From a virus: 64,000 nucleotides of DNA. Numbering within the stretch: the stretch's first letter is position 1; every line of letters begins with the position of its first letter. Made by a program: the position numbers and the translations under genes. Location of the stretch: IMG/VR virus record IMGVR_UViG_3300025634_000001, positions 32,001-96,000 of that record; one strand, written 5' to 3'. Under the pieces are notes generated by a model that worked only from the letters and a program-made list of their open reading frames with translations, ran no database searches and was not told the DNA's origin. Shown one piece after another: positions 1,841 to 32,345 of the stretch.

Positions 1841-2909
1841 CTACCCGGCCACGCTCCGCGCCGCATGGCGGGACCACCTCGCACCGCGTGCCCCAGATGC
1901 ACCGACCGTCATATCGACGTTCGCTGGCTGTGGCGGCTCATCCCTCGGCTGGTCGATGGCCGGGTACCGGGAGCTGCTCGCCGTCGAATGGGATGATCAC
2001 GCGGCCGAGGTGTTCAGGCTCAACTTCCCGGACGTGCCGCTGCATCATGGCGACATCGCTCACGTGGATCCCAGCCGGCTCGGACTGGAGCCCGGCGAGC
2101 TTGACGTGCTTGACGGTTCGCCGCCATGCCAGGGATTCTCCCAACTCGGCCGCCGCCAACTCGATGATCCCCGCAACCAGCTATTCCGTCAGTTCATCCG
2201 GCTGCTCAGCGCATGGCAGCCGAGGGCCTTCGTGATGGAAAATGTCGCCGGCCTCGTAGAGGGTCCCATGCTGCCGCTATTCGCGGAGATGATGACCGAA
2301 CTGAAGGCGGCAGGCTACCGGGCCGCCGCCCGGCTGGTCGATGCCTCATACATCGGAGTGCCACAGCGGCGCAGGCGGCTGATCTTCACCGGAGTACGCG
2401 CCGATCTCGCGCTAGACCCGGTGCATCCTGTACCCAGCATGCGGCCGGTCACTGTGCGCCAAGCATGGGCGCGCCTTGATGATCCCGGCCTTTTCGATGT
2501 GCCAACCGGGAAGGGTATGGCGGTCGCCCGACTGACCAAACCGGGCGGACAGGGCTCCGATGCGCTCTATGCGCGAGGCGGGAAGCGCTCCCATTGGGGA
2601 TGCAAGCGCCTCGCCTGGGATCGGTCATCCAACACGATCAGCAAGGAGACCCGCGCCGGCGCGGGTGCCGGATTCCTGCACCCCTCCGAAGATCGGTTCT
2701 GCGGCGTGCGCGAACTAGCCCGGCTCCAGTCCTTCCCCGATGAGTTCGACTGGGGCGACGGCACCTACAAGCAGATCCACGCCCGCATCGGCAACAGCGT
2801 CCCGCCGCTGATGATGCGGGCGGTCGCTACCGAGATCCGAGACAAGATCCTGCATTCCGCGCGTGTCCTGGAGGACGGCACCACCGAGCCCGTCTCGTTC
2901 GCCAGCTAG
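1833..2909 (+). CDS. DNA (cytosine-5)-methyltransferase
   Basis: Motifs FAGCGG (I), GSPPCQGFS (IV), ENV (VI), QRRRR (VIII), GNSVPP (X); ATG 1833 overlaps ParB end. Confidence 0.95.
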   Translation: MTDYPATLRAAWRDHLAPRAPDAPTVISTFAGCGGSSLGWSMAGYRELLAVEWDDHAAEVFRLNFPDVPLHHGDIAHVDPSRLGLEPGELDVLDGSPPCQGFSQLGRRQLDDPRNQLFRQFIRLLSAWQPRAFVMENVAGLVEGPMLPLFAEMMTELKAAGYRAAARLVDASYIGVPQRRRRLIFTGVRADLALDPVHPVPSMRPVTVRQAWARLDDPGLFDVPTGKGMAVARLTKPGGQGSDALYARGGKRSHWGCKRLAWDRSSNTISKETRAGAGAGFLHPSEDRFCGVRELARLQSFPDEFDWGDGTYKQIHARIGNSVPPLMMRAVATEIRDKILHSARVLEDGTTEPVSFAS

Positions 2910-2956
2910 CCCGATTCACTGAATCCCAAGCAACCCTGAACTGCGGGAGGTGACCG

Positions 2957-3436
2957 ATGGCCCGTAAGCGGTCCCTCGCCACCCGCGAGTCAGACGCCCG
3001 CGCCCTGGAGTTCCGCCGCCGCGGCCTGTCCTATGAGCAGATCTCCGCCCAGATGGAATGGCGTTCCCCGTCCGCCGCCCACCAGGCCGTGCAGCGTGCC
3101 CTCGCCGACAGTGCCCGCGAGGCCGGCGAGGAAGTCCGCCAGATCGAAGCGGCAAGGCTGGACGAGCTCACCCGGACCCTGATGCGGGTGCTCGCCACCA
3201 AGCACTATGTCGTCTCGGTCGCCTCGGGAGTCGTCGCACGCCACCCCGAGACCGGGCAGCTGCTCCAGGACGACGCGCCGGTCATCCATGCTATCGCCGG
3301 GCTCGTGCGCATCAGCGAGCGGCGGTCGAAGCTCCTCGGCCTTGACGCACCGAAGCAGGTTGAGGTCCGCACAATTGACGCCATCGACTCCCGCCTCATC
3401 GAGCTTGCGGACCAGATGGCAGCAGTGGACGCCTGA
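2957..3436 (+). CDS. Terminase small subunit (N-terminal HTH)
   Basis: ALEFRRRGLSYEQIS HTH, ERRSKLLGLDAP motif, directly upstream of TerL; GGAGG RBS. Confidence 0.8.
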   Translation: MARKRSLATRESDARALEFRRRGLSYEQISAQMEWRSPSAAHQAVQRALADSAREAGEEVRQIEAARLDELTRTLMRVLATKHYVVSVASGVVARHPETGQLLQDDAPVIHAIAGLVRISERRSKLLGLDAPKQVEVRTIDAIDSRLIELADQMAAVDA

Positions 3437-4904
3437 GCGGCGCCGCGAGTTCCTCCGCAGGCTAGACGCGGAGGAACGTGAACGGCTGCTCGCGGTCCTC
3501 GACGCCCCCGAGCCGGGACCGCCCTGGACGCAGATCGCCCGGCCCGAGCAGCTCCCGCCCGATGGCGACTGGCTGCTGTGGCTCTACATGGCCGGCCGAG
3601 GCGCTGGCAAGACCAGGGCCGCAGCGGAATGGGTTCACGGCCGGGCGCAGGCTTACCCCGGCTGCCGCATAGCGCTGGTAGGCCGTACCCCTGCAGACGT
3701 CCGTGACGTCATGATCGAGGGCGACTCCGGCATCCTGTCTGTCGCGAGGGATGCCCGGCCCGCCTACCAGCCGACGAAGCGGCGCCTGACGTGGCCGAAC
3801 GGGTCGATGGCCTACACCTACTCGGCTGAGGTTCCCGCGCAGCTCCGGGGCCCGCAGCATCACTACGCGTGGTGTGACGAGCCCGCGTCGTGGACTGACG
3901 CCCGCAAGGGCGACGTGCTGGACACCGCGTGGAACAACCTGATGCTGGGGCTGCGGCTCGGCCGGTCGCCGCGGTGCGCGGCCACGACCACGCCGAAGCC
4001 GCTGGCGCTCATCCGCACGCTGCTCGGCCGCCCGACGACGGTCGTGACCAAGGGCAGTACCTACGACAACCTCGACAACCTCGCGCCGTCGTTCCGCGCT
4101 GAAGTGCTGGCCGCGTACGAGGGAACCCGGATCGGCCGGCAGGAACTTCTCGGGGAACTGCTCGAGGACGTCGAGGGCGCGCTGTGGACGCTGGCGCTGC
4201 TCGACGGGAACCGCGTCACGTCCGCGCCGGACATGCGGCGCATCGTCGTCAGCATCGACCCCTCTGGCGGGTCGGGCCCTGACAATGACGAGCAGGGCAT
4301 CATCGTCGCCGGCCTCGGTGTCGACGGCGAGATCTACATTCTCGCGGACAGGTCATGCCGCCTCTCGCCGCACGGCTGGGCATCGCGTGCCGTCGGCGCA
4401 TGGCAGGAGTTCAGCGCCGACCGGATCGTGGCCGAGAAGAACTACGGCGGGGACATGGTGGAGTCCACCATCCGGCAGGTCTCCAAGGTGGTCCCCGTCA
4501 AGGTCATCACCGCCTCGCGTGGCAAGGTCCAGCGGGCCGAGCCGGTCGCGGCGGCTTACGAGCAGGGCCGCGTGCATCACGTCGGGGCGATGGCCAAGCT
4601 TGAGGACCAGCTGACGACGTGGACCCCCGCTGACGGGACGAGCCCGGACCGCCTAGACGCCTTGGTGTGGGCCGTGACAGAGCTGACGGACAACTTCAGT
4701 GCCGACGCCTGGATCGCATGGGCGAAACGCAAGGCCGAGGAAGCCGCCGCCGACCGGGACGCACCCCCGGAACCCCGCGCGAACGGCGCCGTGCCCGCCG
4801 CTGAGACGCCACCCGGACCAGACGCGGACGTTGTTCCCCTCACCCCGGCTGAAGCCCGCAGGGCGGCGAGGAACGCTGCGTTCGCGGCTGGCTCGTGGAC
4901 CTAG
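3375..4904 (+). CDS. terL: Terminase large subunit
   Basis: Walker A AGRGAGKT, Walker B WCDE, TTTP coupling motif, nuclease IDPS...SPDRLDALVWA; probable TTG start at 3375 after GAGG. Confidence 0.95.
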   Translation: MTPSTPASSSLRTRWQQWTPERRREFLRRLDAEERERLLAVLDAPEPGPPWTQIARPEQLPPDGDWLLWLYMAGRGAGKTRAAAEWVHGRAQAYPGCRIALVGRTPADVRDVMIEGDSGILSVARDARPAYQPTKRRLTWPNGSMAYTYSAEVPAQLRGPQHHYAWCDEPASWTDARKGDVLDTAWNNLMLGLRLGRSPRCAATTTPKPLALIRTLLGRPTTVVTKGSTYDNLDNLAPSFRAEVLAAYEGTRIGRQELLGELLEDVEGALWTLALLDGNRVTSAPDMRRIVVSIDPSGGSGPDNDEQGIIVAGLGVDGEIYILADRSCRLSPHGWASRAVGAWQEFSADRIVAEKNYGGDMVESTIRQVSKVVPVKVITASRGKVQRAEPVAAAYEQGRVHHVGAMAKLEDQLTTWTPADGTSPDRLDALVWAVTELTDNFSADAWIAWAKRKAEEAAADRDAPPEPRANGAVPAAETPPGPDADVVPLTPAEARRAARNAAFAAGSWT

Positions 4905-5516: not shown

Positions 5517-8500
5517 ATGGGCGTCCGCACTCGCATCGGGAACGGCCTGACCCGCGTGGCGAAGACCTTCGGCACGTCGGTACCGGAGTCCTTCACGCAG
5601 GGTGAAGCCGCCAGCCAGATGACCCCGGCGTCCCCGTTCAGCCCCGGCACGCCCATCGGCCCGTACGACGGCTACGACCGGCACACCCGCCAGTTCAATT
5701 TCCAGACCGGCTACAACATCAGCACCCGGCCGCGGCTTCACGAGGCAGTGTCGTTCTCCACGCTCTCTGGCTTGGTAGAGTCTTACGATGTGGCTCAAAT
5801 ATGCTGCACGCCAAAGACTGAGATCATCACCAAGCGCGGCCTCGTCCCGATTGAGGACGTAGTTGTCGGCGATGAGGTAATCACGCACCTGGGCCGCTGG
5901 CGGCGCGTAACCGAGACGATGGTCAACAGGCCGCATACTCCCGTGCGGACGATGAAGACGAGCGCGTTCGAGGATCTGTCGGTCACCGGCAACCATCCTG
6001 TCTATGCGGTTGACTATGGCCTGAGTCAGACCAATAGGCGCGCAGCCAAGGGGATCGGCTGGGTTAGCGCCGACCGGTTGCGTCCGCGAGGGCCGAAGTC
6101 CCCCGGCAACCGCCGCTTTGACGGGCTTGTACTGCCCGCGCTCGCCTTCCCAGACGGATGCCCCGTACTCGACATAGGGACGATTGCCGGGGACGCATAC
6201 ACGGCCAACCCTGACGGAATGCTGGTCCGGACCCTCGGGGGACGGCTCACGCCGGTTCCCGCTCAGGTCAAGATGGACGCCGCCCTCGGCCGGCTGCTCG
6301 GCTGGTACCTGGCCGAGGGGTCGCAGGGCCATAACCGCGACGTACATTTCACCCTGGGTGCGGGCGAGCGCGATTACGCAGAGCAGATCGTCGCCGACGC
6401 CACCGCCGTTTTCGGCCTGGGTGGCACCATTAGTCCGGTGACCGGGGGCGCCAGCCTAGGCGTCCGCATCCACTCGACTATCCTCGCGTCGCTGTTCCGT
6501 TGCGGCACTGCGCACACCAAGCGGCTGCCGGAGTGGGCGTGGGCCGGCGGCCGGGAGTTCTTCACCGCCATGCTTGAGGCGTGGGCCCTCGGTGACGGCT
6601 GCCGCAGTATCCGCGAGGGCAAGGAAAACTGGTCACCCCGCATCATGGTGATCACTGTCTCGCGGGACCTGGCCTGGCAGATGCGGATGATCGCGATCGC
6701 CCTTGGCCTGTCTGCGTCCGTGGTCACCTCGCGGGGGCGCGACAAATACAAGTCCTCCGTCATCAACGGGCGAGAGCTTGCCAGTTCACCCATCTGCTAC
6801 CGGGTGGAATGGCGAGAGAAGCCGACCCGCTGGGGCCGTGAGTCCTTCGAGTTCGATGGCCGGTACCTCGCGACCGCGCTCGTCTCCGCCGAGCAGTCGG
6901 ACTACGACGGCCCGGTCTACAACCTCGAAGTCGAGGAAGACGAGTCCTACGTCACGACCGGCGGCACTGTCCACAACTGCATCTGGCATCGCATCGACTC
7001 CATCCGGTCCCTCGACTGGAAGCTGCTCCCGGCTGAGGGCTACAAGGGCGATGTCACCGACGCGATCCCGCTGGGCCTCGCCGCGCTGAAGAAGCCTGAC
7101 CGGAAGAACTACTTCAAGACGTGGCTCGCGAAGTACCTGTACGACATCCTCGCGTGGGACGCGGGAGCGATGTACCGGCTGCGGAACCGCGGCGGCCGGT
7201 GCATCGGCCTGCAGCCGGTTGACGGCCGGACCATCGCGCCGCTGCTCGACTACTGGGGCAACTCCCCCGACGAGCCCGCCGAGGCTTACGTCCAGTACGT
7301 CAACGGCCTGCCGTGGAACTGGCTGACCCGCGCGGACCTGATCTACGAGCCGTTCCGCCCGGTGACGAATTCCCCGTACGGGCGCCCGCCGATCGAGTCC
7401 GTGATCCTCAACGCGAACACGGACCTGCGGTTCCAGGCGTACTTTTTGCAGCGTTTCACCGCCGGGAACCTTCCCGCCGCGTTCGCGTCATCGCCTGAGT
7501 CGTGGTCACCGGACCAGATCGAGCAGTTCCAGAGCTACTGGGACGCCATGCTGTACGGCGACCAGGCCGGCAAGCACCAGATCAAGTGGATGCCGGGCGG
7601 CACCAAGATCGCCTGGTCTGATGAGAAGGACTTCTCGGACCAGTTCTCGCTGTTCATGATGCGGAAGACCTGCAGCGCCTATCACGTGGTGCCATCTGAC
7701 CTGGGCTTTACCGAGTCAGTGAACCGCTCGTCTGGCGAGTCGCAGGCCGACGTGCAGCACCGTGTCGGCGACCTGCCGCTGATGGAGCATGTCGAGGAAA
7801 TCGTCTCGATGTTCCTGCAGGACGACCTGGGCCTCCCGCTGCGGCAGGAGTTCGACCGCGGCGAGGAGCAGGTTGACCAGTACGCCCAGGCGCAGGCCGA
7901 TGTGCTGTACATGGACCGCGCGGTGGTGGGCTCGTCCGAGATCCGGGAGATCCGCTACGGCCTGACCGACACGACGCCGGTCCCGCGCTCGTTCTTCACG
8001 ACCCGCGCCGGCCCCATCCCGCTGTCGTCGCTGATGGCTGTTGCCGGGGCAGTGGACCCGGTGACCGCCGCCCCGGAACCGGGCGCCCCGCTGCCTCACC
8101 AGGTGTTCGAGGAGGCTCCGGGTGTCGCCCCGAACCCGCCGCTGTACGGGCAGCCGCTCGCGGAGGAGATCTACGGCCCGTCGGCTATCCCGGCGCACAC
8201 GGAGACGCAATCCACGATGCCGGTCGCCAAGGAAGGCGAAGGCGCGGGGATCACGGCGGAGACGGGGATCTACAGCTACGACCTCGACGGCAAGGACGAC
8301 GACGAACCGCGCACGGCAGAGACCAGTCTCCTGAAGCCGGCCGACTCGCAGGCGGTCATCAAGTCTGAGCTCGCTGCTTTCCGCCGCTTTGAGCGCACCC
8401 GGCGCAAGTCTGGTGAGTGGCGGGACTTCAAGTTCAGTGCCGTCGCTGACGTGCAGGCCCACAACCTCAACGACGACGGCAGGCTCGCTGTCCGCAAGGC

Positions 8501-8594
8501 TACGGGTGAGGTGGCCGTCGCGGGGCTCGCGGTGATGGCTGCGGACACGGGACGAGTGCTGATGCTTCAGCGAGCGCTAGATCCCGAGGATTAG
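5517..8594 (+). CDS. Portal protein with intein; C-terminus carries the first strands of a NUDIX domain
   Basis: Portal motifs (YVQYVNG, SPYGRPPIE, CSAYHVVPSDLG, NRSSGESQ); ends AGLAVMAADTGRVLMLQRALDPED. Confidence 0.9.
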   Translation: MGVRTRIGNGLTRVAKTFGTSVPESFTQGEAASQMTPASPFSPGTPIGPYDGYDRHTRQFNFQTGYNISTRPRLHEAVSFSTLSGLVESYDVAQICCTPKTEIITKRGLVPIEDVVVGDEVITHLGRWRRVTETMVNRPHTPVRTMKTSAFEDLSVTGNHPVYAVDYGLSQTNRRAAKGIGWVSADRLRPRGPKSPGNRRFDGLVLPALAFPDGCPVLDIGTIAGDAYTANPDGMLVRTLGGRLTPVPAQVKMDAALGRLLGWYLAEGSQGHNRDVHFTLGAGERDYAEQIVADATAVFGLGGTISPVTGGASLGVRIHSTILASLFRCGTAHTKRLPEWAWAGGREFFTAMLEAWALGDGCRSIREGKENWSPRIMVITVSRDLAWQMRMIAIALGLSASVVTSRGRDKYKSSVINGRELASSPICYRVEWREKPTRWGRESFEFDGRYLATALVSAEQSDYDGPVYNLEVEEDESYVTTGGTVHNCIWHRIDSIRSLDWKLLPAEGYKGDVTDAIPLGLAALKKPDRKNYFKTWLAKYLYDILAWDAGAMYRLRNRGGRCIGLQPVDGRTIAPLLDYWGNSPDEPAEAYVQYVNGLPWNWLTRADLIYEPFRPVTNSPYGRPPIESVILNANTDLRFQAYFLQRFTAGNLPAAFASSPESWSPDQIEQFQSYWDAMLYGDQAGKHQIKWMPGGTKIAWSDEKDFSDQFSLFMMRKTCSAYHVVPSDLGFTESVNRSSGESQADVQHRVGDLPLMEHVEEIVSMFLQDDLGLPLRQEFDRGEEQVDQYAQAQADVLYMDRAVVGSSEIREIRYGLTDTTPVPRSFFTTRAGPIPLSSLMAVAGAVDPVTAAPEPGAPLPHQVFEEAPGVAPNPPLYGQPLAEEIYGPSAIPAHTETQSTMPVAKEGEGAGITAETGIYSYDLDGKDDDEPRTAETSLLKPADSQAVIKSELAAFRRFERTRRKSGEWRDFKFSAVADVQAHNLNDDGRLAVRKATGEVAVAGLAVMAADTGRVLMLQRALDPED
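5802..6977 (+). mobile_element. Intein with LAGLIDADG (DOD) homing endonuclease, 392 aa
   Basis: Starts CCTPKTEI, block B VTGNHPV, LLGWYLAEGS and AWALGDG endonuclease blocks, ends VYNLEVEEDESY...VHN followed by Cys+1. Confidence 0.93.
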
Positions 8595-9127
8595 CGGCCA
8601 TCGGGTGCCGTCGTCCCCGCGAGGATCCCGGCCCGCACGGCTGCGTACCGGTCGACTGGCGGCCGGCGCACTGGCACCGACAGCTCCAGGATGACCGACT
8701 CCCATTCGGCGCCCTGCTCTACGGCCTCGGCGGGTACTTCGCGGGAACGGCAGGGCGCATCGACGTCATCGGCGCCCGGGTAGAAGAACCGGTCCATGTA
8801 CATCAGCGCCTCGGCGGGCAGCGCAAGCGGAATGTATCCCTGCTGGGCAACGGTGTCGATCAGCTTGTGCCGCATGTCGTGCCGGATGTGCTCGCGGTAT
8901 GCGTCGATCGCCCACTCGTGCTTGAGAGCCGCCTGCCGGATATGCAGGACGCTGTCGCTGAAGGACAGTGCTACCTCGGCGATGAGTCGGGCCTGATGCT
9001 CGGCCACGCTGATGCCCTGGAGCCACGCTGCCATCTGGACGGCCTCGGTAACGCTGTGGGCGCGCTGCCTGATGTGGGCGCACTTCTCCTGGTCCGACAT
9101 ATGAGGGTACGGAATCTCGGGTGCCAT
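8591..9127 (-). CDS. Hypothetical protein inserted between the two halves of the NUDIX domain
   Basis: MAPEIPYPHMSD...; TACGAT 7 nt before ATG; TAA overlaps portal TAG. Confidence 0.7.
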   Translation of the reverse strand: MAPEIPYPHMSDQEKCAHIRQRAHSVTEAVQMAAWLQGISVAEHQARLIAEVALSFSDSVLHIRQAALKHEWAIDAYREHIRHDMRHKLIDTVAQQGYIPLALPAEALMYMDRFFYPGADDVDAPCRSREVPAEAVEQGAEWESVILELSVPVRRPPVDRYAAVRAGILAGTTAPDGR

Positions 9128-9155
9128 GCCCTGAATCGTAGCCACGGGAGGGCGC

Positions 9156-10700
9156 ATGTCCGACCCTGCTGCGGGCAAGTTCGAATTCGCCGGCGGGCAC
9201 ATCGAAGGCGCGGAATCCCCTCGCGCCGCAGCGATAAGGGAATGGCAAGAGGAGACGGGCCTCCCGTTTGTCGATGGCGAGTTCACTGGCTCCTGGGTAT
9301 CCGCTAACGGCATCTACGAGGGCTTCGTCTACACGATCCCCCGCGAGGCCGACCTTGACATTTTCGCCCGCCAGCTCGGCACCGACCCGGACGGCGACGT
9401 AACGGGATCGGAAACGATCGCCTGGTGGGATCCGGCGACTCTGCCCGGTAACGCCGCCGTCCGGCCTGAGTTGCTACAGGACATCGACGCCGTGATGGCT
9501 GCTCTCGGCTGCGATGAGGGGGCAGCCGAGGACTGCTGCGGTGCTGAGTGCTGTGCCGGAGGGTGCTGTAACGGCTCGTCCGGATGCCAGTGCGGGACAG
9601 GCGCGACACCCGCCGAAGGTGACGAAGCCACCTGCCCGTGCGGGACGCCGGTCGTGTACGACGAGATGAACGGCTGGCAGCACGCCGACGGCTCCATCAG
9701 CCACGATGACGGCGAGTCCGTCAGCGACAAGATGGCGGCGATAGCCAAGGCTGGTGGTAGCAGCGCAGTCCCAAAAGGTGACCCGGACGACTGGTCCGGC
9801 ATCTGGGCCAGGACGCACGCGCGCCGGGAGAAGCTGCTCGCCGGGCACGAGAAAGCCGTCCTCGCCGCGTGGAACGACCTCGCGGGGGACCTGAGCCCGC
9901 GCGTTCTCGTCCGCCAGTTCAAGGCCGACGCGGGACTGGTCGCCAAGCTGGCCGACCCGGACCGGCCATGGTGGAAGGACCGCGGCAGGGACGCCGCGCT
10001 CGCGTGGCTGACCGCGATGCAGCAGCGGAAGGGCTGGGCCGCTCTCGTCGCCGCGATCGAGGCCGCCATCGCCGACGGGATGGCCGAGGGCGAAGCTGAC
10101 TCGCTCGCGGTCGCCGCTGACCGGCAGGGCGTCAAGGGCTTCCCCGTCGCCGCCGCTTTCACCGCTGCGGCGCAGGCGCTCCAGGGTGACCCGGACGTAG
10201 GCCAGAAGGCACAGGAGACCGCGCAGGGCATCCTCGGAGGCGTCGCGGCGGCCCTGTCCGTGACACTGGCGGACGGCGCCGGCAACGGCTCCAGCGACGC
10301 CGAGATGGCCGATGCGGTCACCGGCACCGTGACGGGCCCGGACGTGGCCCCGGTGAAGTACGGGCTCGCTGACGCGCTCTGGGCGGCTGCCGGCGCCGGG
10401 CTGACACGGCTCATCGGCAAGCTGCTGACGGGCACCCCGGCTCCAGCGGGAACAACCACGGAGACCGGTCCGGCTGCCCCGCCAGTTCCGCCGCCGGACG
10501 AGCCGGAACCCGGCCTCGCGATGATCAACTGGGTGTGCGAGGGCGGCAACCCGTGCGTTACCTGCCAGGACAACCAGGATGGCAGTCCGTATGCGCCGCA
10601 GGACGTGCCGGCCTATCTGGCGCATAACCACTGCATGTGCGCCCTGTACCTGGCAAGCGACGTTCCGTCATCGTTCTTCGCCGCCTACCTGCTGAACTGA
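9156..10700 (+). CDS. NUDIX C-terminal part + Cys-rich linker + MuF-like minor head protein
   Basis: NUDIX box GHIEGAESPRAAAIREWQEETGL (Gx5Ex7REUxEExGU); C-terminal CVTC...HNHCMC MuF signature; GGGAGG RBS. Confidence 0.85.
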   Translation: MSDPAAGKFEFAGGHIEGAESPRAAAIREWQEETGLPFVDGEFTGSWVSANGIYEGFVYTIPREADLDIFARQLGTDPDGDVTGSETIAWWDPATLPGNAAVRPELLQDIDAVMAALGCDEGAAEDCCGAECCAGGCCNGSSGCQCGTGATPAEGDEATCPCGTPVVYDEMNGWQHADGSISHDDGESVSDKMAAIAKAGGSSAVPKGDPDDWSGIWARTHARREKLLAGHEKAVLAAWNDLAGDLSPRVLVRQFKADAGLVAKLADPDRPWWKDRGRDAALAWLTAMQQRKGWAALVAAIEAAIADGMAEGEADSLAVAADRQGVKGFPVAAAFTAAAQALQGDPDVGQKAQETAQGILGGVAAALSVTLADGAGNGSSDAEMADAVTGTVTGPDVAPVKYGLADALWAAAGAGLTRLIGKLLTGTPAPAGTTTETGPAAPPVPPPDEPEPGLAMINWVCEGGNPCVTCQDNQDGSPYAPQDVPAYLAHNHCMCALYLASDVPSSFFAAYLLN

Positions 10701-11423
10701 CTAGCCCCTGGGGATGAGCTGGTCAACGCTGACGCCGTGCTCGCCGAGCCATTCCAGGACGCTGAACACGGTCCGGGGCGTGATGTCGAATGATCCCCAG
10801 CTGGCGTTCGCCTGATCCTGGGCGCGGAGGATTTCACTGACGAGCTCGTGGCGGCTCAGGAATCGCGCCGGACCGTAATCCTCCAGCCCCCACTGATCGC
10901 CATTCAGGGTCAGCGGCGCGATCTCCACCGACTCATACATGACCGGAGCGCCGAAGCGGCTCGGCGGCAGGCTGATGTCGGCTCCCGGATAGAGGGTGTC
11001 CCGGCTGAAGCGGACCTCTGCGGCGATCTCGGCGTACTTCACCGGGTGGCGGCGCAGGAACCACGGGATGAAGTAGACGCGCGGCACGATCGTGAGGATG
11101 TCGAGCGGCAGCCAGAACAGCAGATACCGGCTGAGGGGCTTCTGGAGCCACGCCGCGTGCCATTCGTCGGCCGTCTTCTTCAGGTGCTGCCACCCGCTGG
11201 CGGGCACCTTGACTGACGCCCGTTGCTTCTCGGTAACAGTCCGCCCGGACAGGATGCTGGTTGTGAACCGCAGCATCATCTCCCCGAACGCCCGGTCTCG
11301 CATCTCCTCCACCTGGAGCAAGTCCCGGCTGTAGCTGCCCACGTAGCCGAACTGCTTCGAGGTGAGTTGCATCTGCCGCTGGAAATAGCCCGGCATGCTG
11401 AGAAGCCGGTTCTCTTCGCTCAT
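10701..11423 (-). CDS. Hypothetical protein with a hydrophobic segment (leaderless, antisense)
   Basis: 240 aa ORF; YLLFWLPLDILTIVPRVYFIPW; CATCAT 6 nt before ATG. Confidence 0.65.
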   Translation of the reverse strand: MSEENRLLSMPGYFQRQMQLTSKQFGYVGSYSRDLLQVEEMRDRAFGEMMLRFTTSILSGRTVTEKQRASVKVPASGWQHLKKTADEWHAAWLQKPLSRYLLFWLPLDILTIVPRVYFIPWFLRRHPVKYAEIAAEVRFSRDTLYPGADISLPPSRFGAPVMYESVEIAPLTLNGDQWGLEDYGPARFLSRHELVSEILRAQDQANASWGSFDITPRTVFSVLEWLGEHGVSVDQLIPRG

Positions 11424-11441: not shown

Positions 11442-11711
11442 CTACCTGCTGTCCTGACTGGCCTTCGGCTTCCTGCCGCCGCCCGCACCCTGGCCGGGCA
11501 GCGACGCTTTCCATGCCCTGATCTCGCCCATGCGTTCCGGCAGCCAGCCGGGGATGGCTTTCTCGTCGTCTTCGTCTTCGCCGGTCCACGCGTCGGGCTC
11601 GGGGAACGGCGTGGCCGTGTCGCGGTATCGGTTGCGCCACGTGGCGACGAGGTGGCGACTAGCGCCGAGCCTGCGGCCGATGGCGGCCTGTCCGAGGTAA
11701 CGGGCGGTCAT
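11442..11711 (-). CDS. AlpA/excisionase-like HTH DNA-binding protein
   Basis: YLGQAAIGRRLGASRHLVATWRNRY...PFPEPD...PGW; GGAG RBS. Confidence 0.75.
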   Translation of the reverse strand: MTARYLGQAAIGRRLGASRHLVATWRNRYRDTATPFPEPDAWTGEDEDDEKAIPGWLPERMGEIRAWKASLPGQGAGGGRKPKASQDSR

Positions 11712-11756
11712 GGTTGTCACTCCCTGAGTTTACTTCTGTCGCAAAGTTTTACGCGG

Positions 11757-12098: not shown

Positions 12099-12323
12099 AT
12101 GGCCGCAGCCGAGTGCTCACCCTGCGGCGAGTCATTTACCGGCGTGACCAGCTTCGACGCACACCAGGACCGCGACTACTCCCGCACGCCCGCCATCATC
12201 TGCCACCCCCCGGCTGAGGCCGGTCTCGTCCTGAACGAGCACGGACGGTGGGGCTTCCCGCTCAACGAAGCCGGACGCGCCTACTTCGCATCGCTGGCAG
12301 GCAAGGGGGCATCTGATGCCTGA
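12099..12323 (+). CDS. FDXHR-type phage zinc-binding protein
   Basis: CSPCGESFTGVTSFDAHQ...C.PP..GL. Confidence 0.7.
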   Translation: MAAAECSPCGESFTGVTSFDAHQDRDYSRTPAIICHPPAEAGLVLNEHGRWGFPLNEAGRAYFASLAGKGASDA

Positions 12324-12696
12324 CGAGCCGCAAAGATACGTTTTGTCCATCGCATACAAAGCCGGGAAAGACCCGCGCATAACCAAGGGCGCTGACGGCG
12401 GCCGGGACTTCCTGACGGCCGAATCGCTGGAGCTCGCGGCGTGGAATTACCTAGCCAAGGGTGACCCGCAGGTTGGCATCGGTCACCTAGACGGCACGAC
12501 CGGCGCCGCGACTGTTGTCGAGAGCTACATCTGGCGTGGCCCTGACTGGGATCTCGGCGACGGCATCATCGTCACCAAGGGTGACTGGCTCGTCGGCATG
12601 ATCCTGGACGAGCGCAGCTGGTTTTTGGCGCAGCAAGGGAAGCTGAACGGGCTAAGTCCGCAGGGAATCGCGAGGCGACGCCGAGCCGTCCGCTAG
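12316..12696 (+). CDS. XkdF-like prohead serine protease core
   Basis: RYVLSIAY..DFL..ELAAW..H..VVESYI..KGDWLVG..GKLNGLSPQG. Confidence 0.85.
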   Translation: MPDEPQRYVLSIAYKAGKDPRITKGADGGRDFLTAESLELAAWNYLAKGDPQVGIGHLDGTTGAATVVESYIWRGPDWDLGDGIIVTKGDWLVGMILDERSWFLAQQGKLNGLSPQGIARRRRAVR

Positions 12697-31928: not shown

Positions 31929-32345
31929 GTGAATTTCTCCGAGGCCGCGGCGAGATTCAAGGCCGCCACTGACCGGGCTGAAGCGTCGATGGCCCGTGAC
32001 TGCGCGGCGGCGGGGGCGCGGGCGTTCCTGCCGATCGAGCGGTCCATGACGCCGGTCCTGTCCGGGCGCCTGCGGGAGTCCGAGGCGGTCAAGGCGGTGA
32101 CGGGCGGCGGGACGTACGCGGAGGCGGTCGTGTCCCCGAACATCATCTACGCGCGGTTCCGGAACTTCGGCGGGACGATCACGGCGAAGCGTTTCCCGCA
32201 GCTCGGCAACCCGACGGTGGGGTTCTTCGGCAAGTCCGTGACGCAGGCCGGGAGTCACTACGTGGAGCGGGCGGATGCGGCTGCACGGGGTCCCGTGCAG
32301 GTCGCTATCCAGATGCGGGCCGACACGTTCTTCGAGGGCCTGTAA
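31929..32345 (+). CDS. HK97 gp10-like tail completion protein
   Basis: TPVLSGRLRES...YARF.NFGG motif. Confidence 0.75.
   Translation: MNFSEAAARFKAATDRAEASMARDCAAAGARAFLPIERSMTPVLSGRLRESEAVKAVTGGGTYAEAVVSPNIIYARFRNFGGTITAKRFPQLGNPTVGFFGKSVTQAGSHYVERADAAARGPVQVAIQMRADTFFEGL

Follow-up and report, generated by a model that had tools for sequence, protein, structure and literature searches.

NUDIX hydrolase domains fused to the MuF and portal proteins of phage heads have already been described, and it was proposed that these enzymes are packaged in the head and injected together with the DNA (Iyer, Burroughs, Anantharaman and Aravind 2022, PMC9503650, section 3.5.2). Phage coding sequences that are interrupted by other genes are also known. 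For example, NrdA of Aeromonas phage Aeh1 is split by the free-standing endonuclease gene mobE, a case of genes in pieces (Crona et al. 2011, PMC3045599), and fractured genes have been reported in which split inteins are separated by an intervening homing endonuclease (Dassa et al. 2009, PMC2677866). Here we describe a split NUDIX domain that combines two of these known kinds, the head-protein NUDIX fusions and the genes in pieces. It lies in a stretch of 64,000 nucleotides (positions 32,001 to 96,000 of the IMG/VR virus record IMGVR_UViG_3300025634_000001), which is referred to below as the window. Judged from their sequences, the portal gene and the next gene on the plus strand hold adjoining parts of one NUDIX domain, with an unrelated antisense gene between them.

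The portal gene (5517-8594, plus strand) encodes a protein of 1025 amino acids that matches Phage_portal in Pfam (E 1.6e-13) and, outside an intein, is 41% identical to gp3 of Arthrobacter phage Mufasa8. Its C-terminal end (amino acids 996-1025, window 8502-8591) is an orphan N-terminal piece of a NUDIX domain, strands 1 and 2, with 74% identity to residues 539-565 of Mufasa8 gp3. The open reading frame (ORF) ends in ...AADTGRVLMLQRALDPED, or in a longer reading ...EVAVAGLAVMAADTGRVLMLQRALDPED, and is followed by a TAG at 8592-8594. The downstream ORF (9156-10700, plus strand, 514 amino acids) begins with MSDPAAGKFEFAGGH... and has its own ribosome-binding site (RBS), GGGAGG at 9146-9151, ahead of the ATG at 9156 (together 9146-9158). 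Amino acids 1-120 of this protein (9156-9515) form a NUDIX fragment that lacks strands 1 and 2; it matches Pfam NUDIX with an E of 6.2e-10 over profile positions 26-118 of 134 and is 50% identical to Mufasa8 gp3. The Nudix box that marks the NUDIX superfamily (PF00293), GX5EX7REUXEEXGU, is complete at residues 14-36 (window 9195-9263).

In Mufasa8 gp3 the residues on the two sides of the split are contiguous (...QRYLDPEDPAAGKWEFPGGH). Set against that sequence, the window portal reaches as far as the second D, and the next gene takes up again from that D. The break is in the loop between NUDIX strands 2 and 3; the portal stop is located five residues past strand 2, and the 9156 protein starts two residues ahead of the next conserved residue, with no part of the domain lost. 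An earlier note on this DNA, made from the letters alone, had proposed a NUDIX domain divided at a shared Asp between the portal end and the next plus gene, and the sequence reads as it claimed. It had also ascribed to the insert a stop shared with the antisense gene, that gene itself and a new GGGAGG and ATG. These can be read directly: the letters TTAG at 8591-8594 contain the overlapping stops of the portal gene (TAG) and of the antisense gene (TAA, the complement of 8591-8593).

The division between the two genes was also seen with a profile (142 positions) for which the NUDIX regions were taken from fused homologues alone, 12 in number; it was run on all 1128 ORFs of the window. Only two of them matched, namely the portal, whose last 30 residues (996-1025) correspond to profile positions 2-31 (E 1.8e-10), and the 9156 protein, which corresponds to positions 30-142 (E 2.4e-42). 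Because the two genes match adjoining stretches of one profile, we take them to hold complementary, nearly non-overlapping parts of one domain, and at these E-values their likeness to NUDIX halves is not attributable to chance. Thus, the 9156 protein is not a complete alpha/beta/alpha NUDIX fold in a single polypeptide, the absent positions being on the portal tail, and portal, NUDIX and MuF are not encoded in a single ORF, which is broken by the TAG at 8592, 564 bp and a new ATG at 9156.

A tblastn search found fused homologues in two Arthrobacter phages, Mufasa8 and Sonali, where the products of gene 3 (1000 and 995 amino acids) are annotated as portal or portal-MuF fusion proteins and contain Phage_portal, a full NUDIX (profile 6-123) and Phage_Mu_F. 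The three modules are orthologous to those of the window and are arranged in the same order; what differs is that, in the window, the chain is interrupted partway through NUDIX by a stop codon, 564 bp of inserted DNA containing an antisense gene, and a fresh start codon, so that two genes encode the domain. In IMG/VR, 25 related loci were found, most of which are fused in frame; for example, L004 and L005 have single frames of 1111-1149 amino acids with a MuF C-terminus nearly identical to that of the window protein. The best 120 portal relatives in a large protein collection were sorted by where they end. Sixty-nine are full fusions and nine more are fused but have a degenerate Nudix box (78 of 120 fused), 20 have the portal and a complete NUDIX but not MuF, 15 are tail-only (ending at most 25 residues past the tail), seven end in the middle of the NUDIX domain and six are without the tail motif.

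A tree was built from NUDIX together with the C-terminal part of the portal. On it, a single change accounts for the five split loci (support 59/94; 65% of bootstrap trees), which lie within a clade of fused forms, and L011, the nearest relative and fused at the split site of the window, joins them with support of 98/99. Because the split loci are nested inside fused forms, the tree places the fusion as ancestral and the split as derived. The earlier note had likewise supposed that an ancestral portal-NUDIX-MuF protein was split. The pair of observations it had named as telling against this, a lack of fused homologues together with a complete NUDIX domain in the 9156 protein, is not what was found, since fusions exist and the fragment lacks the first 25-48 residues of solved chains.

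Members of the split clade are five contigs together with 15 clusters of portals and 24 of partners. In the closest relatives (76-83% identity), the split is in the same loop, but the inserts differ. The window insert is 564 bp with an antisense 178-amino-acid gene, whereas the insert of L006/L007 is 541 bp with an antisense DUF6221 gene, that of L008 is 363 bp with no convincing gene assigned, that of L009/L010 is 328 bp with a sense 107-amino-acid Cys-rich ORF and that of L015 is 774 bp with two antisense ORFs, one of them in phrog_8937. No significant mutual DNA or protein similarity was detected when the inserts of the split loci were compared. The downstream side is constant: each of the five split loci has a purine-rich RBS and an ATG ahead of M[SPA]DPAAGK, and 24 cluster representatives in the large protein collection begin with M[SPA]DPAAG(K). 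The portal stop is variable, lying 5 to 14 residues beyond a conserved ...QRA. The antisense insert of the earlier note is therefore present here, but it is not one element; these comparisons show the gap to be a cargo slot in which small accessory genes are exchanged. The split itself probably arose once, with the cargo turned over afterwards.

A further arrangement was noticed in P0055 and P0036, each of which is on a contig of 9727 bp, perhaps one and the same. In this case, the portal ends with ...ALCDDDPAAGSAAEP and the partner starts with MPDPAAGK, so the DPAAG loop is on both pieces, which may be either a short duplication from the insertion or another breakpoint.

These patterns bear on the possibility that a group I or group II intron, an intein or ribosomal bypass eliminates the insert at the level of RNA or protein and so yields a covalent portal-NUDIX-MuF chain. 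The joint is seamless at the protein level, the T at the portal end and the G at the insert end before TCC would on paper suit a group I intron, and inteins and LAGLIDADG genes are present in the window phage and its relatives. However, a search of catalogued ribozymes in Rfam gave no match, either in 8300-9500 (E cut-off 10) or in five related loci (E cut-off 1). In addition, an intron or bypass is difficult to reconcile with inserts that share no sequence, vary from 328 to 774 bp and have ORFs on either strand, with an RBS and ATG conserved in all of the split loci and the 24 database proteins, and with a portal stop that moves. An intein is excluded by the stop codon directly after the tail, the absence of Hint sequence at the joint, the antisense insert ORF and the lack of extra residues at either end. 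We consider removal of the insert to be very improbable.

Both pieces have continued to be constrained. In the 23-codon core of the tail, pairs within the split clade have 6-16 synonymous versus 0-1.5 non-synonymous differences (proportion of synonymous differences, pS, 0.29-0.78; proportion of non-synonymous differences, pN, 0-0.03), and the core hardly varies among the 15 portal clusters of the tail-only type. The NUDIX fragment has a pN/pS of 0.10-0.27 in the split clade, and the strict Nudix box is kept in 24 of the 24 split partners (those with the start M[SPA]DPAAG), down to about 60% identity. By these counts, both halves are still under purifying selection after the split, and decay is therefore disfavoured.

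Decay is what would be expected if the split had killed the enzyme and the tail and fragment were only a leftover linker or spacer, with MuF contacting the portal directly, as it usually does. It is established that portals can be bound by members of the MuF family that have no NUDIX domain, SPP1 gp7 for instance, and the nine fused relatives with the degenerate box are without its last glycine, so activity is not universal in the family. However, relaxed selection would have worn away an orphan peptide of 23 residues, and instead the core is almost invariant over five loci and 15 clusters despite saturating synonymous change. The retention of every Nudix-box residue in the partners and the low pN/pS of the fragment also argue against a dead enzyme, and we regard it as unlikely.

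The best sequence match among solved structures is the Thermus ADP-ribose pyrophosphatase 1v8i (E 3.8e-7); when aligned with it, the tail covers the first strands, and the break comes in a loop ahead of the strand running into the Nudix box. When the fragment was modeled alone with AlphaFold2, the mean confidence (predicted local distance difference test, pLDDT) was 69.9, residues 1-10 and 75-86 were below 50 and two strands were not formed. All 50 among the structural matches listed for this model are NUDIX chains, the best being RenU 6uuf_A (Z 7.7, root-mean-square deviation (rmsd) 3.3, 106 aligned residues), and in matched chains with an N-terminal Nudix domain the alignment starts at residue 25-48.

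The complex of a 59-residue portal tail and a 125-residue fragment was predicted along with three controls. The tail and fragment scored 0.69 versus 0.01 for the best control; the mark used for this score is reached by 58 of 80 solved complexes and by 2 of 110 mismatched pairs. The runs agreed in at least 82% of contacts, and the partner pLDDT was at least 53. In the predicted interface, tail residues 32-55 are placed against fragment strands 55-61 and 85-93, and the fragment pLDDT is 69-70 with the tail versus 47-52 with unrelated partners. A predictor that has learned solved NUDIX structures may let two halves of a familiar fold pass on that ground, and we therefore take the prediction as a sign of likeness and not of binding.

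The models are also relevant to the suggestion that the tail is kept for the sake of the portal itself, for subunit or DNA contacts, and that the truncated NUDIX works alone or as a domain-swapped homo-oligomer. Many NUDIX enzymes are dimers, and the fragment alone still models as NUDIX-like, with the match to RenU given above. However, the tail residues are core NUDIX strands in the fused relatives (Pfam profile 6-25), the fragment model loses two strands and has two stretches of low confidence, and its confidence rises only with the true tail. We think that this suggestion is doubtful, with only a small chance of being right.

The explanation that we prefer is that an ancestral fusion was split and that its halves reassemble non-covalently and dock NUDIX-MuF on the portal; we would give it a probability of roughly 0.7. 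The ancestor had one head protein that ran from portal through NUDIX hydrolase to MuF. In the lineage of the window phage, a gene went into the strand 2-strand 3 loop, after which the portal stopped early and translation was restarted by a new RBS and ATG, and the break became a permissive intergenic slot in which small accessory genes are swapped. The comparisons above show the ancestral fusion, the break without loss, the separate translation signals, the turnover of cargo and the lasting selection on the two pieces and on the Nudix box. Both halves are presumably still needed: the two-strand tail of each portal subunit would insert into the beta-sheet of the truncated NUDIX, which would rebuild an active enzyme without a covalent link and dock NUDIX-MuF on the portal inside the capsid. 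From there it could leave with the DNA on ejection, as has been suggested for the fused proteins.

Several points weigh against this explanation. The predicted complex was expected to pass, because it rebuilds a textbook fold, and memory of solved NUDIX structures may have contributed; the binding of the two proteins and the enzyme activity are things that we infer. Conservation of the tail could have a cause that lies in the portal and has nothing to do with NUDIX, and the branch support for a single origin of the split is only moderate (59/94). The suggestion in the earlier note that the domain may reassemble in trans and tether MuF gains from the strong purifying selection on the tail, the intact box in all 24 partners and a predicted complex that passes its controls, but this support is indirect. 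The same note proposed that the enzyme could act on ADP-ribose or nucleotide signals.

The explanation can be carried further. The two-piece NUDIX might be a non-covalent latch, in which the portal peptide completes, activates and anchors NUDIX-MuF, while the break is a protected slot for accessory genes, possibly for counter-defence, and a second independent break was made by a homing endonuclease. We consider the chances of this extended version to be about even.

The second break is in L011. There, the portal frame runs through the tail and the Nudix box to ...EADL and then stops; in 1962-3546 of that locus, a 374-amino-acid LAGLIDADG gene (2282-3406, Pfam E 2.2e-7) follows, and then the remaining NUDIX in another frame. 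The seven portal clusters that end mid-NUDIX do so like L011, and all of them have a conserved ...NDRV.DR.GR end. This is a second, independent break of the same domain in a sister lineage, and it has the classic genes-in-pieces pattern of Aeh1 nrdA/mobE (PMC3045599). In the extended version above, such a break by a homing endonuclease would suggest that the linker enzyme tolerates fragmentation unusually well. The proteins of the mid-NUDIX type are P0048-P0050, P0089, P0094, P0099 and P0108; the end that they conserve may have a role similar to that of the tails through which split NrdA assembles.

The window locus itself is like Aeh1 nrdA/mobE in that a coding sequence that is contiguous in relatives has been cut by an inserted gene, and in that separately translated pieces are thought to reassemble without RNA or protein splicing. 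There are also differences. The window insert has no recognisable endonuclease, the LAGLIDADG gene being in the sister L011 at another site; assembly would use the domain's own strands, whereas the Aeh1 type has new insert-derived tails; and the window pieces are on two different virion proteins, with the cargo in the gap since turned over. The fractured genes (PMC2677866) are similar because a gene is in two with a selfish or accessory gene between its halves. However, the window locus is without intein halves, and its pieces end five residues past the last homologous residue and start two before the next; therefore, the chain cannot be religated. The slot also resembles phage morons and the accessory slots of late operons, where one and the same position is taken, from one related genome to the next, by small genes that have nothing in common and are often antisense; the slot described here, though, is inside a protein domain and not between genes.

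Relative to the published fusions, the new features are the derived, widespread split, the selection on both halves, the cargo slot and the second split. If the preferred explanation is true, the locus would exemplify natural fragment complementation that selection has maintained in many phages, in a fold that is small and well understood. To our knowledge, natural split-domain complementation is rare outside ribonucleotide reductase and split polymerases. It would also offer a simple, testable way into the attachment of head-packaged effector proteins to the portal and their release, and the tail peptide and fragment could serve as a ready-made split-enzyme pair. The cargo slot shows that an insertion inside a structural gene can become a lasting landing pad for accessory genes.

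The cargo gene of the window (8591-9127, minus strand, 178 amino acids) belongs to a conserved family with no function assigned. Eleven homologues (42-100% identity) have 20 invariant columns, and the nearest one conserves the start at 9127; because of these invariant columns and the conserved start, we regard the antisense ORF as a real gene. In L029 (364-846), the only other context viewed, a homologue is antisense beside a homologue of window gene 12316-12696, the Mufasa8 counterpart of which is annotated as a capsid maturation protease. Therefore, the cargo family appears to occupy, or move between, different slots of the head module.

Searches with the cargo protein were otherwise unrewarding. 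No family was found in Pfam or PHROG and no phage matches by tblastn, the protein or its alignment had no matches in viral and genome contigs and only one short contig in metagenomes, and the ESM Atlas gave no usable match. Its model has a pLDDT of 82; with Foldseek it had no match in PDB or BFVD up to an E of 0.001, and in a wide search with VIA-align the best matches, HK97-type capsid proteins (Z 6.4, rmsd 4.0, 89 aligned), were within the background of the tool. The minus strand in the gene has one sigma-70-like match (8859-8831), which is not informative for an actinophage, and no terminator was found. A transposon-like insert was considered and rejected, as the insert ends have only chance-level short repeats and neither terminal inverted repeats nor a target duplication; no homing endonuclease, terminal repeats or target duplication were found in the window.

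The source record is a complete IMG/VR virus record of 105.7 kb with direct terminal repeats and a G+C content of about 67%, and the phage is a soil actinophage. Its host is probably a streptomycete, because the NCBI names on related proteins are those of Streptomyces and Streptacidiphilus genomes. A blastn search of window 8000-10000 against GenBank phages gave no matches, and a search of genome contigs for prophage copies with the 9156 protein found only one distant Kineosporiaceae contig from a metagenome-assembled genome.

The intein in the portal, at about amino acids 96-487 (window 5802-6977), is supported by weak matches to Hint_2, LAGLIDADG_3 and Intein_splicing, each below the Pfam cut-off. 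This intein-like insert is missing in Mufasa8 gp3 and in the L006 and L008 portals (622 and 632 amino acids) and is present in L010.

The remainder of the 514-amino-acid protein (9516-10700) consists of a Cys-rich linker and a MuF-like C-terminal part, in which a C..C / HNHCMC motif can be aligned to Mufasa8 gp3 within its Phage_Mu_F region. This part has no Pfam MuF match at E up to 0.1 and a weak match to phrog_1657 (head morphogenesis, E 0.079); PF04233 is carried by the orthologues P0037 and P0038, and the C-terminus of the fused relative L005 is, as mentioned, almost the same. The Cys-rich stretch (CC, CC, CC, C.C, C.C; window 9507-9650, about amino acids 118-165), between NUDIX and linker, is partly conserved among relatives and may be a metal-binding module. 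Between NUDIX and MuF there is also a slippery heptamer, C CCA AAA (9770-9776), at which a -1 shift would lead to a stop after two codons; the heptamer and its close -1 frame stop are kept in nine relatives, split and fused alike.

Two further antisense genes of the head module are located directly after the MuF gene. The first (10701-11423, minus strand, 240 amino acids) matched no family, and the second (11442-11720, minus strand, 92 amino acids) matches the DNA-binding protein family phrog_597 (E 1.1e-10).

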